From positions 1 to 35,688 of the forward strand of contig JAUVNV010000002.1 in NCBI GenBank assembly GCA_030599515.1: DNA of 35,688 nt, in the 5' to 3' direction. This DNA comes from Acidimicrobiia bacterium. Lineage in GTDB: Bacteria > Actinomycetota > Acidimicrobiia > Spongiisociales > UBA5794. The stretch's first letter is position 1; each line of letters begins with the position of its first letter. Below the pieces are notes generated by a model. The model saw only the letters and a program-made list of their open reading frames with translations, did no database searches and had not been told where the DNA came from. This document shows, piece after piece, positions 6,039 to 24,236 of this stretch. A program made the translations under genes and the position numbers.

Positions 6039-6050
6039 ACCCCCTCGACG

Positions 6051-6141
6051 ACAGACCACAGATCACAGCGGACAGCCACCGAACCATGTCTCACGGCCGG
6101 CGACCGGGTACTCGATACTCGGTACCCAATACTCAGTACTG
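6051..6141. repeat. Heptanucleotide tandem array, 13 units in one register
   Basis: Units: acagacc acagatc acagcgg acagcca ccgaacc atgtctc acggccg gcgaccg ggtactc gatactc ggtaccc aatactc agtactg. The array fills the convergent HNH/recR spacer. Confidence 0.85.
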
Positions 6142-6157: not shown

Positions 6158-6751
6158 CTACATCTCCAAGCGTCCCGACAGCGCTCGACCGAGCGTGATC
6201 TCGTCGGCGTAGTCGAGGTCGCCGCCGACCGGTAGACCGGAAGCGAGTCTCGTGACGGTGACACCGAGCGGCTTCAACATCCGGGCGAGGAGCATCGCCG
6301 TCGCATCTCCTTCGAGCGTTGGATTCGCCGCGACGATGACCTCCGTGATGTTCTCCGCGCCGACCCTGTCGACGAGTTCTTTCGCTCTGAGCTGATCCGA
6401 ACCGATCCCCTCGATCGGAGATATCGCACCTCCGAGGACGTGGTAGCGGCCGCTGAACTCCCCGGTCTTCTCGATCACCGGGATGTCCTGAGCACGCTCG
6501 ACGACGCACACGACCGACGTGTCACGCCGTAGATCACGACAGATCGAACACTCCTCTTCTGCAGTGACGTTGTAGCAACGAGAGCACAGCCGGACCTCGC
6601 GCCGCATCGACGTGATCGCGTCGGCGAGCCGGACCGCGTCGGCTTCCTCTGCGTTGAGGAGATGGAACGCGAGCCGCTGCGCGCTCTTCCGACCGATACC
6701 CGGAAGCCGGGCCAGTTCGTCGACGAGGCGCTGGACCGGCGGTTCGAACAT
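6158..6751 (-). CDS. recR: Recombination protein RecR
   Basis: N-terminal HhH ([20 protein letters not shown]), a C4 zinc finger ([12 protein letters not shown]) and a Toprim domain. The ATG overlaps the ybaB stop (TGATG). Confidence 0.95.
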
Positions 6752-7080
6752 CAGCCGAGCAGACCGCCGAGATCCATCCCGCCTGCGACGTCTCCCATCG
6801 AGCCTGCTGCATCCTCCGACGCTGCCAAGAGCGCCTGGTTGACGGCCGCGACGACGAGATCTCCGGCCATCTCCGGATCATCGGGGTCGAGGATCGACGG
6901 CTCGAAGTCGACCGAGACGAGTTCTCCCGATCCCCGTACGACTGCCTTCACCACGCCACCGCCGGCGGTTCCCTCGTACGTCTTCGCGGAGAGTTCGGCC
7001 TGTGCGGCCTCGATCTGCGCCTGCATCTGCTGCGCCTGCTGCATCAACTGGCGCATATCGTTCGGCATTCGTTGTGACAT
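6751..7080 (-). CDS. ybaB: Nucleoid-associated protein YbaB/EbfC
   Basis: 109 aa. [51 protein letters not shown] is the typical YbaB fold signature. The gene lies immediately upstream of recR. Confidence 0.9.
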
Positions 7081-7087
7081 GGCTTGA

Positions 7088-7093
7088 AGGGTA
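7088..7093 (-). promoter_or_regulatory. Candidate -10 box TACCCT for ybaB-recR, 7 nt upstream of ATG (leaderless geometry)
   Basis: The minus strand reads gTACCCTtcaagccATG. It fits the actinobacterial TANNNT -10 consensus. No SD is present. Confidence 0.35.
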
Positions 7094-7221
7094 CTGAGTA
7101 CTGAGTACTGAGTGCCCGGTGCCCGGTATCCGGTATCCGGTATCCGGTAGTTCGCAGTTCTTGAAGCTTGCAGCTTGTGGCTTGCAGCTCTCGTCTTTCT
7201 ACTTTCTACTTTCTACTTCTC

Positions 7222-7227
7222 TACTCT
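7222..7227 (+). promoter_or_regulatory. Candidate -10 box TACTCT for dnaX, 8 nt upstream of ATG (leaderless or near-leaderless geometry)
   Basis: Reads cTACTCTtcggcccaATG. There is no SD between the box and the ATG. The box lies inside a heptamer unit. Confidence 0.35.
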
Positions 7228-7235
7228 TCGGCCCA

Positions 7236-9074
7236 ATGACTCGCTACCAAGCTCTCTATCGAAAGTACCGGCCGCAGCGCTTCGATGAGGTGATCGGACA
7301 GGATCACGTGATCGGAACCCTCACCAGGGAGGTCACGGACGAGAAGGTCGCCCATGCCTACCTCTTCGCGGGGCCCCGCGGAACAGGGAAGACGACGACG
7401 GCCCGCCTTCTCGCGAAGTCGCTCAACTGCACCAACCGCACGACGGGCGCCGAACCCTGCAACGAGTGCGCCTCGTGCGCCGGCATCACCGAGGGGACGT
7501 CGCTCGACGTCATCGAACTCGACGCGGCGTCGCACAACAAGGTCGAGGACGTCCGGGAGATCCGTGTCAACGTGGGAACGGTCGCCGCCGCAGAAGGCGC
7601 CCGCCGGATCTACATCCTGGATGAGGCCCACATGCTCTCGCGTGCTGCAGGAAACGCTCTCCTCAAGACGCTTGAGGAACCGCCCGAGCACGTCGTATTC
7701 GTGCTCGCCACGACCGAGCCGTACAAGCTGCTCGACACGATCCGGAGCCGATCACAGAGGTTCGACTTCCATCCGGTGTCGTCGGAGACCCTCATCGGGT
7801 ACCTCGCAGAGATCTCGAAGCGCGAAGGGTTCACAGCGGATCATGCCGGCCTCTCGATGATCGCCACCCACGCCCGTGGATCGGTCCGGGACTCGATGAG
7901 CCTGCTCGAGCAGGTCGCCGCGTTGGGGGACGGCACCGTCTCGTCGGAGGGCGTCACCCGGGCTCTGGGACTGGCGGATGACGAGGCTTTCACTGGACTG
8001 GTGGCCGCTATCGCCGATCAGGACGCACCCGCGGCGCTCGGACTCGTCGCCCAGCTCGCTTCGCGCGGCGCCGACCTGCGACGGTTCGTCGCCGACGCAC
8101 TCGGCTTCTTCCGCGGCATTTTCCTCGCCCAGTACGCGCCGAACCTCGAGGAGATCACCGACGAACCGCCCGAGATCCTCGACGAGTGGCGCCGGATGGC
8201 GAAGGTCGTGCCGTCATCCGACGTGTTGCGCGCCATCGACCTGTTCTCCGAAGCACTCCTGCATCTCCGACAGGGCCGCGAGGAGCGACTCATGCTCGAG
8301 TTGGCGGTGATCCGCCTGACCCGACCGGAGACGACGGTCGATGCCGAGGCGCTCGCGGTACGAATGGACCGGTTGGAGCGAGACGTGAAGGTCGGAGCCC
8401 CCAGATACCAGCCGCCGGCTGCCAGCCCGACGAAGGAGACAGGAGACGGGGGACAGGAGAAAAGAGACAGCCCGAAGGAGGCGACAGGCCACAGGCGACG
8501 GGCAACAGGCGAGATCCAAGACGAGATGACGGACAGCCGACAGCCGACGGCCGACAGCGGCGAGCCGGAGCAAGTCGAGGTCGAAGAACCAACGGCGAGC
8601 GATTCAGTACCGACTACCGACTACCGACTACCGACTACCGACGGTGGACCCGGCGAAGCCGGATCCACCGTCACTCTTGCCGACTTCTCTGCGGCTTGGC
8701 CGGTTGTCGTCTCGCGCATCCGATCGGACTTCGGTGCTCGCCGGCACGCTTTCGTGAAAGTTGCCGAACCGCGATCGGTCGAGGGTTCGGTCGCCGTACT
8801 CACGATGCCTTCGCACCAGCACTTCCATCTCGAGCAGTTGAACGCCGACGAACAACTGCGAGGCGCCCTCGAAGCCATCACCGCCGAGATCCTCGGTTGC
8901 ACGGTCACGCTCCAGTTCCGCTCTGACGACGACCAGGTGCCGGCAGAGATGGAGACCGGAGACGAGTTGCCGCTCCGAGCACCCGAGAAGGATGATCTCG
9001 CTGAGGGCGAGGACCCCGAGGATCCCGCCGATATGGTCGCCGACCTCCTCGGCGGGAAGATCGTCGAGGAGTAG
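7236..9074 (+). CDS. dnaX: DNA polymerase III subunit gamma/tau
   Basis: YRKYRPQRFDEVIGQDHV, Walker A GPRGTGKTT, a Zn module (CTNRTTGAEPCNECASC), DEAHML and the sensor motifs are present. A low-complexity linker and an actinobacterial-type C-terminal domain follow. Start set at ATG 7236; the upstream ORF extension reads through the repeat array. Confidence 0.93.
   Translation: MTRYQALYRKYRPQRFDEVIGQDHVIGTLTREVTDEKVAHAYLFAGPRGTGKTTTARLLAKSLNCTNRTTGAEPCNECASCAGITEGTSLDVIELDAASHNKVEDVREIRVNVGTVAAAEGARRIYILDEAHMLSRAAGNALLKTLEEPPEHVVFVLATTEPYKLLDTIRSRSQRFDFHPVSSETLIGYLAEISKREGFTADHAGLSMIATHARGSVRDSMSLLEQVAALGDGTVSSEGVTRALGLADDEAFTGLVAAIADQDAPAALGLVAQLASRGADLRRFVADALGFFRGIFLAQYAPNLEEITDEPPEILDEWRRMAKVVPSSDVLRAIDLFSEALLHLRQGREERLMLELAVIRLTRPETTVDAEALAVRMDRLERDVKVGAPRYQPPAASPTKETGDGGQEKRDSPKEATGHRRRATGEIQDEMTDSRQPTADSGEPEQVEVEEPTASDSVPTTDYRLPTTDGGPGEAGSTVTLADFSAAWPVVVSRIRSDFGARRHAFVKVAEPRSVEGSVAVLTMPSHQHFHLEQLNADEQLRGALEAITAEILGCTVTLQFRSDDDQVPAEMETGDELPLRAPEKDDLAEGEDPEDPADMVADLLGGKIVEE
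8438..8640. repeat. Heptanucleotide array (29 units, single register) embedded in the dnaX linker coding region
   Basis: Units: gacagga gacgggg gacagga gaaaaga gacagcc cgaagga ggcgaca ggccaca ggcgacg ggcaaca ggcgaga tccaaga cgagatg acggaca gccgaca gccgacg gccgaca gcggcga gccggag caagtcg aggtcga agaacca acggcga gcgattc agtaccg actaccg x4. Confidence 0.85.
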
Positions 9075-9076
9075 GG

Positions 9077-9625
9077 GTGCGACTCGGGATCGACCTCGAC
9101 GGTGTCGTCGCCGACTTCAGTACGGGTTGGGTGAACCGCTACAACGACGAATTCGGATCGAACGTCAGCACCGACCAGGTGGACTCGTGGGACGCGATGG
9201 ACCACCTGACCCACTTCGAATCGAAGGGGGCCTTCTGGCGCTGGGCGGCCAGAGGCGTCCACGGGTCCGTGTTCCGGCACCTCGAGACCTACCCGGGTGC
9301 CCTCGAGGCGCTCGGCAGACTGAGCAAGGGTCACGAGGTCGTGATCATCACCGCGAAACCCGATTGGGCGGTGCACGACACGTTCGCCTGGATCGCAGAC
9401 CGGCGCATCCCGGCCCGCGAAGTCCATATCACTGAATCCAAATGGCAGATCCCTTGTGACGTCTACCTGGACGATTCCCCTCGCCAGATCGCCGAACTCC
9501 ACACCAACCGACCCGAGGCGATGGTGTGCCGCTACGTCCGCCCGTGGAACGAATCCGTTCCCGGCACCACGGATGTTCACGGCTGGGCCGAGTTCGAGAC
9601 GCTCGTCAACGCTCGCCGGCGATGA
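9077..9625 (+). CDS. HAD-superfamily 5'(3')-deoxyribonucleotidase-like protein (NT5C family)
   Basis: The N-terminal DxDxV motif (GIDLDGVVADF) and overall length fit PF06941-type nucleotidases. The GTG start is 2 nt after the dnaX stop, with GAGGAG just upstream. Confidence 0.7.
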   Translation: MRLGIDLDGVVADFSTGWVNRYNDEFGSNVSTDQVDSWDAMDHLTHFESKGAFWRWAARGVHGSVFRHLETYPGALEALGRLSKGHEVVIITAKPDWAVHDTFAWIADRRIPAREVHITESKWQIPCDVYLDDSPRQIAELHTNRPEAMVCRYVRPWNESVPGTTDVHGWAEFETLVNARRR

Positions 9626-9711: not shown

Positions 9712-10833
9712 ATGAGGAAATCACCTCTTATTGTCCTGCTCCTCGCCTTCGCGATGCTGATCGCAGCATGCGCGAGCACCGGCGATGAGGAGACCACGAC
9801 CACCGCAGCCGCGGCGACCACCGCAGCCGCGGCGGAGACAACCACGACTGCTGATCTGAAGGCCGACTGGCCTGAGAAGATTCTCTTCGGATTCATTCCG
9901 TCTGAGAAGCAGGAGAAGCTGAGCGACACGGTGCAGCCCTACATGGACTATCTCACCGCGGAGCTCGGGATCACGTTCGAGGGCATCATCACCGCCGACT
10001 ACAACGGTCTCGTCGTCGCCATGGGCGCCGGCAACGCCGACCTCGGCGCGTTCGGTCCGCTCGGCTATGTGCAGGCGAAAGAGCTGTACCCCACTATCGG
10101 CGTATTGATCCAGTCCATCCGATTCGGTTCGGACCTCTACCACGGGCAGTGGTTCACGAACGACCCGTCGCTGTGTGAGGACGAGCCCGTCGTGGGAGCA
10201 TACGAACTGGTCGACGGTGTTCCGACGATCATGGATCCGACCGAAGTCCCTGCGCTCCAGGTCGGCTGGGCCTACAACGACGACGGACTGGGGCAGGAAG
10301 TCCTCGAGGATGGCACAGAAGTCGCACAGGGCCTCGTCTGCACGGCGTCGCTCGACGTGGTGAAGGGCAAGACGATCGCGTTTGTCGAGGCGACTTCCAC
10401 GTCCGGCGGCTTGTACCCCCAACTCCAACTCTTCGAACTCGGCATCGACATCGAGAACGACCTCGAGTACTCGTACTTGACGTCGCACTCCGCCACCGTC
10501 CAGGCCGTTTACAACGGCGACTTCGACATCGGTGTCAGTTACGACGATGCCCGCCGCTCGGTTCGCAAGGACTACACCGATGTGGGCCAGAAGGTGATCG
10601 TGTTCAACATCACCGATGAGCAGATCCCAAACGACGTCGTTGCGGTGCGCGGTGAACTGCCGGAGAGCCTCCAGCTTGCGATCTTCGACGCGACGCAGAC
10701 CTATCTCGACACCGAAGAGGGCGAAGCCGTCTTCGACGAGATCTACGGATGGACCGGCATCCGGCTCGCACGCGATGAAGACTTCGACATCGTCCGCGAG
10801 GCGGCCGCACAGGCCGGCGTGCTCGACGGCTAG
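9712..10833 (+). CDS. phnD: Phosphonate/phosphite ABC transporter substrate-binding lipoprotein
   Basis: A lipoprotein signal (LLLAFAMLIAACAS) is followed by a Thr/Ala linker. PhnD-like core motifs are present (ILFGFIPSE, GYVQA). phnC and phnE follow. SD gggagaa lies upstream. Confidence 0.8.
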   Translation: MRKSPLIVLLLAFAMLIAACASTGDEETTTTAAAATTAAAAETTTTADLKADWPEKILFGFIPSEKQEKLSDTVQPYMDYLTAELGITFEGIITADYNGLVVAMGAGNADLGAFGPLGYVQAKELYPTIGVLIQSIRFGSDLYHGQWFTNDPSLCEDEPVVGAYELVDGVPTIMDPTEVPALQVGWAYNDDGLGQEVLEDGTEVAQGLVCTASLDVVKGKTIAFVEATSTSGGLYPQLQLFELGIDIENDLEYSYLTSHSATVQAVYNGDFDIGVSYDDARRSVRKDYTDVGQKVIVFNITDEQIPNDVVAVRGELPESLQLAIFDATQTYLDTEEGEAVFDEIYGWTGIRLARDEDFDIVREAAAQAGVLDG

Positions 10834-16726: not shown

Positions 16727-16742
16727 GTAGTCCGTAGTCCGT
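16727..16742. repeat. Short heptamer repeat (gtagtcc x2) in the convergent M23/coiled-coil spacer
   Basis: Reads gcagtagtccgtagtccgt. The reverse complement (ggactac) occurs in the 23683-23794 array. Confidence 0.6.
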
Positions 16743-16755
16743 GAACACTGTCTCG

Positions 16756-17205
16756 TCAGGCGATGAAGGCGAGCAGCGCCGCGAAGATGGCTGCGAGCGC
16801 GGTCATGCCACCGATCATGGTCACCGTGTAGGTTCGCAACTGATCGCGAATGACGTCCTGGAGGCCGTACATGCGATCGTCCATCGTCTCGAACCGCCGG
16901 TCCATTCGATCGAAACGCTGATCGACCTGCTCAAACCGCTGATCGACCTGCTCAAACCGCTGATCCACCTGCTCAAACCGCTGATCAACGAGATGGAACC
17001 GTCCGTCGATGGCGTCGAACCGGGCGCCGAGCAGTTCTTCGAGACGGTCGAATCGCCGCTCCAGCACGGCGACATCCGATCTCGTCGCCATCCGGGCCCC
17101 CGGTTCGGCTGGTAGGTACGTCATGAGCGTGTCGGCGTGTTCGTGACCGAGCACCTCCTCAAGACGAGCATACAGGGCACCGGCATCAGAGATGGGAGTG
17201 GACAT
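16756..17205 (-). CDS. Tail-anchored coiled-coil protein with 7-aa tandem repeats (DQRFEQV)
   Basis: ATG 17205 is preceded by AAAGGAG. The protein carries RFDRLEE / DGRFHLV / DQRFEQV x3 / DQRFDRM / DRRFETM repeats and a C-terminal TM segment (MIGGMTALAAIFAALLAFIA). Confidence 0.6.
   Translation of the reverse strand: MSTPISDAGALYARLEEVLGHEHADTLMTYLPAEPGARMATRSDVAVLERRFDRLEELLGARFDAIDGRFHLVDQRFEQVDQRFEQVDQRFEQVDQRFDRMDRRFETMDDRMYGLQDVIRDQLRTYTVTMIGGMTALAAIFAALLAFIA
16897..17001. repeat. 21-nt tandem repeats inside the coiled-coil gene (3 near-identical central units plus degenerate flanking units)
   Basis: ctgatcgacctgctcaaaccg occurs at 16918-16938 and 16939-16959. A copy with one substitution is at 16960-16980, and degenerate copies lie on both sides. 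Confidence 0.9.
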
Positions 17206-17267
17206 GGCGACTCCTTTCTGGTCCACGCCATAGTGTCATGCGCCTGCGACAGATTCTCGGCACTTGT

Positions 17268-17309
17268 GTCTTGCGTCTTGTGTCTTGCGTCTTGCTACTC
17301 AGCTACTCA
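17268..17309. repeat. Heptanucleotide array (6 units) in a divergent spacer
   Basis: Units: gtcttgc gtcttgt gtcttgc gtcttgc tactcag ctactca. Confidence 0.85.
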
Positions 17310-23664: not shown

Positions 23665-23682
23665 GAGAGCAGGGGACGGGCT

Positions 23683-23794
23683 GCAAGTAGAAAGTAGAAA
23701 GACCGGAATCGGACTACGGACCCGACTACGGGATACCGGATACCGAGTACCGAGTACCGATTACCGAGTACCGATTACCGATTACCGATTACCG
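23683..23794. repeat. Heptanucleotide array, 16 units in a single register
   Basis: Units: gcaagta gaaagta gaaagac cggaatc ggactac ggacccg actacgg gataccg gataccg agtaccg agtaccg attaccg agtaccg attaccg attaccg attaccg. The array overlaps the last codons of the protease gene. Confidence 0.95.
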
Positions 23795-24236
23795 ACAATT
23801 CAGCAAAGACCATCTCTACCACCTCATCAACTGCGGCGTCGACTTCGGGGCTCAGATTCACTCCCGGTTCGACTTTCCCGATCTCGATCCCGAAGACGAC
23901 CAACTCGTCGGGCAACATGTCGACGGCACCACCCAGGTCGATGGCTTCGACGACGCCGATGAGATGGGTCGATGCCGAGCGCCACGAGGATGGGAATCCC
24001 CCCTTCCCGTCGATACGATGAATCGAGCCGGGAACGCCACCCGAGACCACGGCGTCGACGACGACGGCCAGCCTGGCGTCGCGCCACGTGTCGAGAAGAT
24101 GTGTGGCATCCCCGACCGATTCGACCAGGGCAACCGACTCCGGAGGTCGGCCGGCGAGCCGGTCGATCACGACCGGCCCCGCAGCGTCGTCCCCCATCAT
24201 CCGGTTCCCGACCCCGATCACGACGACGTCAGCCAC
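23775..24236 (-). CDS. Hydrogenase maturation endopeptidase
   Basis: [23 protein letters not shown] is the typical HycI/HoxW-family N-terminus. The gene overlaps the large-subunit stop by 8 nt and starts with GTG. Confidence 0.8.

Follow-up and report, generated by a model that had tools for sequence, protein, structure and literature searches.

Heptanucleotide arrays carried in frame by the dnaX linker of sediment Acidimicrobiia are probably tolerated microsatellites, not a programmed switch

Tandem repeats with a unit length not divisible by three are, as a rule, either kept out of coding DNA or put to use in phase variation. The dnaX gene of an Acidimicrobiia bacterium, placed among the uncultured members of this class from cold-seep and marine sediments, carries arrays of 7-nucleotide (nt) units inside its reading frame, and raises the question of whether such arrays switch the gene between a long and a short product or are simply tolerated. 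The gene lies on contig JAUVNV010000002.1 (assembly GCA_030599515.1), of which positions 1–35,688 were analysed; this whole 35.7-kilobase (kb) stretch, with a G+C content of 63.7%, is referred to below as the window. A sequence-only reading of the window had proposed that gain or loss of one unit truncates the tau subunit of DNA polymerase III, in a manner resembling the gamma and tau forms of Escherichia coli and Thermus. Our analysis points elsewhere: the dnaX arrays are probably tolerated heptanucleotide microsatellites, held in frame by selection and amounting to a mutational liability rather than a programmed switch. No programmed gamma production was seen in dnaX.

Heptanucleotide arrays in the dnaX linker

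The dnaX gene occupies positions 7236–9074 of the plus strand, as do all dnaX features given below, and encodes a 612-amino-acid (aa) DNA polymerase III tau subunit, identified from the open reading frame (ORF) list, Pfam and proteins of 99% identity. Pfam assigns residues 22–181 to DNA_pol3_delta2, 189–233 to the lid, 235–363 to gamma3 (domain III) and 475–564 to DnaX_C (PF20964; positions 8658–8927). All four matches exceed their curated cut-offs, and a single polypeptide thus contains the AAA+ module, lid, domain III and DnaX_C of a clamp-loader subunit. The product length and these domains bear out both the gene identity and the translation of heptamers within the linker between domain III and DnaX_C. 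This linker (residues ~386–478; positions 8391–8669) is predicted to be disordered by AlphaFold2 and is hypervariable among relatives in our alignment.

Comparison of positions 8438–8640 with themselves gave identities of 0.577 at a lag of 7 nt, 0.55 at 14 nt and 0.50 at 21 nt, with other lags at ~0.25. Across all 203-nt windows of the 35.7 kb, lag-7 identity averaged 0.261 (standard deviation 0.046), which places the linker at z ~6.8; the spacer between ybaB and dnaX alone equals its value. Against shuffled sequences, the linker reached z = 8.8 (mononucleotide shuffles) and z = 8.5 (codon shuffles).

The sequence-only reading had described this segment as one array of 29 heptamers. The strong 7-nt periodicity supports the general observation, but segmentation with Tandem Repeats Finder (TRF) and with our own procedure resolved the linker into four short arrays (3 to 5.3 units apiece) in three registers and with an interruption. 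Array 1 (8434–8472; GACAGGA/AGGAGAC, ~5 units, 3 of them strict) lies in register 0. Array 2 (8479–8514; AGGCGAC, equivalent to GACAGGC, 4–5 units) and array 3 (8530–8560; GACAGCC, ~4 units, encoding DSRQPTADS) both lie in register 3. Beyond a stretch that is non-periodic by lag analysis and segmentation (8561–8605; GEPEQVEVEEPTASDS), array 4 (8606–8642; ACTACCG × 5.3, 100% matches in TRF, encoding VPTTDYRLPTTD) lies in register 6. The strictly periodic part of the linker comes to only 112 nt, and the earlier description of the repeat as '203 nt, not a multiple of 3' falls away as a figure that hinges on arbitrary boundaries. Array 4 includes five perfect copies of TACCGAC (8608–8642, 35 nt) and is the dnaX tract most prone to slippage. 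The units of arrays 1–3 differ from one another by single substitutions; given also their registers of 0, 3 and 3, these arrays look like decayed blocks of one older array split by a 3-nt insertion or deletion (indel). Head-to-tail 7-nt units in at least three copies, at a level above chance, place the dnaX linker with the heptanucleotide long simple sequence repeats (LSSRs) and short tandemly repeated repetitive (STRR) sequences.

A predicted disordered tether with a thymine-poor coding strand

In an AlphaFold2 model based on 25 homologues, residues 386–476 had no secondary structure (predicted local distance difference test, pLDDT, ~28–36) and residues 481–563, within DnaX_C, formed a folded alpha/beta domain (pLDDT 80–89). 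A 25-sequence DnaX alignment contained no invariant column between R379/E381 and F484. In E. coli tau, domains I–III are joined to domains IV/V by a long unstructured linker (PMC11470591).

Thymine (T) accounts for 5–7% of the coding strand in the dnaX linker of the window and for 5–11% across array-bearing linkers, compared with 16–18% in the rest of the gene. None of the T-poor linkers has a stop codon in any of the three registers. The T-poor coding strand thus leaves all three registers free of both stops and hydrophobic codons, and each perfect array can therefore be read in three phases as a 7-aa repeat (TTDYRLP, for example).

Array turnover among relatives

DNA for the close clade was obtained through exact-protein look-ups, and a scan of metagenome contigs yielded one close relative. 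The close relatives, about ten Acidimicrobiia of cold-seep and marine-sediment origin (77–83% aa identity; L081, L161–L168, L287 and L288), carry heptamer arrays in the same dnaX linker in every case, with lag-7 identities of 0.47–0.59 in the DNA behind nine of the proteins, and they carry them in the ybaB/dnaX spacer too. Most of the distant Acidimicrobiia have non-periodic dnaX linkers (lag-7 identity 0.20–0.35). Linker arrays do occur in at least three distant relatives (L010, L087 and L096), where the units are unrelated and therefore indicate independent acquisitions. The linker of L010 (2570–2670) combines heptamer arrays with a run of N, the assembly being broken or masked there. Relatives with non-repetitive linkers had been named beforehand as an observation that would count against a slippage role; the distant relatives mostly fit that description, but the close ones do not.

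The C-proximal array is orthologous across the close clade, and its unit changes from species to species at the same position in every copy. The unit is TACCGAC in the window, GTACCGA in L081, TACGGAC in L162, L165 and L287, GTACCCA/GTACTCA in L163 and L288 and CAGTACC in L166, and it is degenerate in L164 and L167. Such change in all copies at once is concerted evolution, so units are still turning over at the DNA level. Both the units and their copy numbers differ between species at orthologous positions, as is typical of LSSR- and STRR-type arrays. Linker length ranges from 243 to 369 nt among species, and every linker compared is in frame except those of L287 and two long-read assemblies.

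Several relatives carry a further in-frame linker insert, 'PSSSSPSGGGADEGGGGGQ' or 'ETPSSSSPSGGGADEGGGGGQ', encoded by a palindrome (core CCTCCCCCTCAGGGGGAGGTG). Carriers are L165 (2150–2260), L083, L096 and L287, together with P0002, P0004, P0009, P0011, P0012 and P0015–P0019. The 21-nt palindrome core recurs in multiple dispersed copies in several Acidimicrobiia metagenome-assembled genomes and in some Alphaproteobacteria (Kiloniellales, Caulobacter, Kaistia and Phenylobacterium); these dispersed copies were found with the 21-nt core, and the 38-nt version of the insert gave zero matches. The core is absent from the 35.7-kb window. The in-frame palindrome copies therefore show that the linker accepts more than one kind of genomic repeat.

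These comparisons bear on whether the encoded peptides matter in themselves, with the 7-aa repeats, or the charge pattern or length of the tether, acting as a binding motif or as a tuned spacer between the clamp loader and the alpha subunit of polymerase III. The retention of arrays in the same linker throughout the close clade fits such a function, as does the recurrence of the peptides SRQPTADS, TGDRGQE and VPTTDY(R/G)(L/V)P. The period, however, is 7 nt and not 21. Identity is higher at lag 7 than at lag 21, which speaks against a 7-aa protein repeat being what is selected, and the copies are identical even at synonymous positions. The same units occur in non-coding spacers, units and linker lengths vary freely between species, and linkers are non-repetitive in most relatives that share the domain architecture. 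We therefore regard a protein-level function of the repeats as unlikely.

Frame consequences and the gamma/tau question

We simulated the products of ±7-nt and ±14-nt changes. Loss of 7 nt (or gain of 14 nt) in arrays 3–4 leads to the TGA at 8755–8757 and a 504-aa product, exactly the stop that the sequence-only reading had foreseen for loss of one unit; in arrays 1–2, the frame scan shows that the same change ends sooner, at the TGA at 8527–8529. Gain of 7 nt (or loss of 14 nt) leads to the TGA at 8924–8926 and a 565-aa product, in agreement with the earlier statement that this frame is open to 8926. It was likewise correct that both shifts drop the C-terminal domain: DnaX_C survives only changes in multiples of three units, and a 21-nt change keeps the frame and adds or removes TTDYRLP.

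With this frame arithmetic in place, the arrays could be viewed as a contingency or slippage device. Units gained or lost in 7-nt steps, whether at the DNA level or while the gene is transcribed, would give a gamma-like DnaX and add a third way of obtaining both gamma and tau. Other bacteria make gamma by several mechanisms that are unrelated to one another (PMC5009743). E. coli uses A_AAA_AAG with stimulators and an immediate stop, Thermus about nine consecutive A residues with stops not far off in each of the other two frames, and Caulobacter proteolysis (PMC5009743, PMC3711429). The dnaX gene of the window has no canonical recoding signal. Nowhere in it is there an in-frame X_XXY_YYZ, as required for −1 frameshifting of the E. 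coli type, or a homopolymer of six or more, where transcriptional slippage of the Thermus type requires an A/T run of about 9 or more; the off-frame stops lie 37 and 93 codons past array 4. A stop directly after the last array, in one alternative frame, is found in three relatives.

Disturbing the interface of the tau C terminus with alpha reduces growth, fitness and viability in E. coli (PMC11470591). By analogy, tau is presumably required, and alleles that lack it should be strongly deleterious. If the switch lay in the DNA of a single-copy gene, a cell would be left with no tau at all, unlike the 1:1 mixture of gamma and tau that recoding provides. Since a heritable indel in dnaX gives the short form only, and since damage to the tau–alpha contact is costly, the likeness to gamma/tau production is a formal one.

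Length variation in assemblies, metagenomes and databases

Three independent assemblies of the species (P0001, P0121 and P0123) encode DnaX of the identical 612-aa length with the same array 4. Logan contigs (k = 31) from four metagenomes span 8000–8635 with single-base differences only, and across eight metagenomes no indel was present in 8200–8635, which covers arrays 1–3; the contigs of all eight runs break at the 35-nt perfect array 4. On/off polymorphism in unit steps was thus not seen within the species, in the three assemblies or, for arrays 1–3, in the k = 31 contigs of the eight runs.

Across nine species-level clusters, 26 of the 29 spanning sequences have the length of their representative; two others carry in-frame expansions and one a frameshift. 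The first expansion, of +66 nt (L288:2630–3020 relative to L163:4130–4450), reflects a higher-order unit of two heptamer arrays present in three copies rather than two, so linkers also grow by duplication of array blocks. The second, of +57 nt in P0133, is a duplication of the palindrome. The frameshift separates L287 (3040–3389) from L165 (1990–2440), which are 98% identical: a 14-nt, two-period deletion between GGACA microhomologies makes the L287 DnaX terminate in 35 out-of-frame residues, beyond which the gene stays open in the +1 frame. As assembled, L287 indicates that indel mutations of the array occur.

At the protein level, the 120 homologues listed were near full length or partial at contig ends, most of them with DnaX_C. 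The out-of-frame tails predicted for the window dnaX matched 0 proteins among 5.8 billion clusters.

Several other candidates for array events were rejected. P0122, P0140, P0150 and P0083 proved to be partial at contig ends, chimeric or frameshifted at other places in the gene. Of these, P0083 and P0140 look chimeric; P0083 (794 aa) fuses DnaX domains I–III (96% identical) to a VanW-like protein at a junction just before the linker, and probably reflects contig chimerism or a rearrangement close to the repeats. In run X3, one contig of depth 2 joins 8419 to 8606 with 10 foreign nucleotides. It was set aside as an array deletion: the match is 22 nt only, beside an abundant repeat, and the contig probably belongs to another locus. 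The word (TACCGAC)n reaches depths of 400x–32,000x in sediment and cold-seep runs X1–X7 and X25, in which the flanking gene is at 3–10x, and its loose contig ends run into other heptamer arrays. (TACCGAC)4 is found at at least 118 loci in many phyla. The idea that it is a special cross-phylum unit was dropped, the composition-matched control (ACCTGAC)4 being equally widespread; heptamer arrays in general are common in environmental genomes.

Known phase-variable tracts are longer than the 3–5 units found here. The perfect 5-unit tract at the end of the linker and the truncating deletion in L287 count in favour of a switch. Against it stand the single length of the three assemblies, the indel-free arrays 1–3 in eight metagenomes, the 26 unchanged sequences, the lack of frameshifted tails among database proteins and the fact that most Acidimicrobiia relatives have no arrays at all. 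The proposed resemblance to gamma–tau production in E. coli and Thermus is not borne out, and we consider a switching device very unlikely. A narrower version of the idea is that array indels maintain a standing minority of gamma-only or split-dnaX alleles in slow-growing sediment bacteria. This, too, seems a long shot; if true, it would be a microsatellite-driven, DNA-level route to a short DnaX, with L287 as its first example.

Other heptamer arrays in the window

Our survey covered the 35.7-kb window and short flanks of the relatives. The window contains six clusters of heptamer arrays, five of them intergenic, and dnaX is its only coding sequence with arrays. The divergent ybaB/dnaX spacer (7081–7230, 150 nt) consists of five different TRF arrays end to end, with units GTACTGA, GTGCCCG, CCGGTAT, CTTGCAG and CTTTCTA; no sigma-70-like promoter was detected in it. 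TRF places further arrays in a convergent spacer that precedes the 3′ end of recR (6040–6141), in another convergent spacer (16727–16742; a short GTAGTCC × 2.3 array), in a divergent spacer (17251–17306; CTTGTGT/CTTGCGT) and in the intergenic region 23665–23800 (AAGTAGA, TACCGGA, TACCGAG and TACCGAT × 8), which belongs to the word family of array 4. Several arrays, mainly intergenic and with different units adjoining, are again what LSSR- and STRR-type repeats look like.

The linker arrays are of the same kind as these spacer arrays, which upholds the earlier description of an intergenic-type array within dnaX. The further statement that the linker shares its words with two particular spacers holds in part. 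AGTACCG/TACCGA fills 23741–23795, and the minus strand has a single GTACCGA at 6119, but ACAGCCG is absent from 6051–6141, where GACAGCC occurs once, at 6071.

Because arrays of the same class fill promoter- and terminator-proximal spacers, those in dnaX could conceivably serve as nucleic-acid signals: sites for a heptamer-binding protein, or points between the two DnaX halves at which transcription or translation pauses. Other heptamer repeats, TAACTGA among them, have been suggested to be regulatory, and each CspB protein binds roughly one heptamer (PMC4679880). No unit sequence is conserved across species, however, and Rfam and promoter and terminator scans found no Rfam match and no promoter- or terminator-like site in or near the dnaX arrays. 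A signalling role is speculative and, in our view, highly improbable. That the repeats are an assembly artefact or a repeat-made chimera has next to no likelihood: repeat-rich regions do break assemblies, as the run of N in L010 and the Logan contigs ending at array 4 illustrate, and P0083 and P0140 do look chimeric, but the same 612-aa product and linker come from three independent assemblies and Logan contigs from several samples span 8000–8635 without a gap.

Two other genes of the window contain tandem repeats of a different sort. A 156-aa protein (16756–17226, minus strand) with a hydrophobic C-terminal tail has a 21-nt, 7-aa tandem repeat at 16888–17001, in which the 4–5 copies of VDQRFEQ are 98% identical; the repeat is truly codon-phased, which the 7-nt arrays are not. 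A perfect 18-nt duplication at 9797–9834 encodes the Thr/Ala-rich segment that follows the signal peptide of a phosphonate-binding lipoprotein, another low-complexity linker with tandem DNA repeats.

Gene start and neighbourhood

The true dnaX start is the ATG at 7236 (MTRYQALYRKYRP...), and the 99%-identical 612-aa proteins of other assemblies begin MTRYQ. A mechanically called ORF begins at the GTG at 7119 (651 aa); an exact look-up of this 651-aa sequence gave 0 matches because the real start is at 7236. Since the dnaX frame stays open through the ybaB/dnaX spacer, ORF callers place the start too far upstream, as in the 651-aa ORF here; P0006 is called at 664 aa. Within 6158–9625, dnaX is divergent from ybaB–recR, as opposed to the usual dnaX–ybaB–recR operon, and a gene for an NT5C-family 5′-nucleotidase begins 2 nt past the dnaX stop. 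The divergent ybaB–recR pair and the downstream NT5C gene form the same layout in all close relatives.

A proposed model of tolerated arrays

The explanation that we favour combines a DNA-level process with a protein-level filter. A process with a 7-nt period would create and homogenise the arrays; replication slippage is its usual proposed cause. Arrays would then become fixed in the part of dnaX that tolerates nearly any sequence, the presumed disordered tether between the clamp-loader core (domains I–III) and DnaX_C. The filter would act in three ways: the coding strand would be the T-poor strand of the repeat, whose registers lack stops and specify polar residues (D, S, T, R, Q, P, G, A and E); net length would stay a multiple of three; and the C-terminal domain would stay attached. 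An indel of one or two units would give a tau-less product, which makes dnaX mutationally fragile, and we expect such alleles to be purged by selection rather than used.

Several points weigh against this explanation. No member of the close clade lacks arrays, and TTDY(R/G)LP is among the peptides that recur, so the arrays may be selected for and not just tolerated. Overall, the AlphaFold2 model of DnaX is of low quality (mean pLDDT 56), only three assemblies cover array 4, and slippage as the origin of the 7-nt arrays is an assumption. A frameshifted allele does exist in L287, and it may be neither rare nor an error. Finally, the description of dnaX as the only coding sequence with arrays applies to the 35.7 kb, not genome-wide.

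If the arrays are tolerated in this way, a lineage-specific repeat-generating process can write strongly into any unconstrained DNA, and the protein-level filter becomes visible in the T-poor strand, the length in multiples of three and the confinement to a disordered tether. What is unusual is that a whole clade carries heptamers in frame within an essential replication gene. The dnaX linker could then serve as a naturally framed reporter of the birth, homogenisation and decay of heptamer arrays; it reveals no new gamma-making route. Linkers of this kind also break short-read assemblies and mislead gene callers, with N-terminal extensions across the repeat-filled spacer, contig ends and chimeras as the result.

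Comparison with known systems

Programmed gamma production shares with the window the gene, the region after domain III and a shift that drops the C-terminal domains. It yields a 1:1 mixture, whereas the shift considered here is a heritable DNA mutation that gives the short form only. The simple sequence repeat (SSR) contingency loci of host-adapted pathogens resemble dnaX in one criterion, a unit that is not a multiple of three inside an ORF, where a change in unit number switches the frame. The window differs from them in its short tracts (3–5 units), in the housekeeping nature of the gene, which is presumably essential, and in that no on/off polymorphism was seen within the species in three assemblies or, for arrays 1–3, in contigs of eight metagenomes.

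TAACTGA direct repeats of marine Beggiatoaceae, Cyanobacteria and Bacteroidetes occur in sets of 2–6 copies, mostly upstream of genes (PMC4679880). One strand of these repeats is translatable as a 7-aa repeat and the other contains stops, which restricts their placement in coding DNA (PMC4679880). That system has one favoured unit; the window has many unrelated ones.

The closest likeness is to the LSSRs of Mrazek and the STRR sequences of cyanobacteria. Mrazek et al. (2007) reportedly found heptanucleotides to be the commonest long SSRs in many bacteria. In PMC4679880 and PMC4692102, heptanucleotide repeats are described as the most abundant long SSR class in many bacteria, mostly intergenic, and repeats whose unit length is indivisible by three as rare in coding DNA. 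Our literature search found no description of heptanucleotide SSRs in cold-seep or marine-sediment Acidimicrobiia. The window shares with LSSR and STRR sequences its short 7-nt arrays, adjoining different units, intergenic bias, phylogenetically patchy distribution and variability between genomes, and differs from them in that arrays also lie in frame inside an essential gene, translated in three registers.

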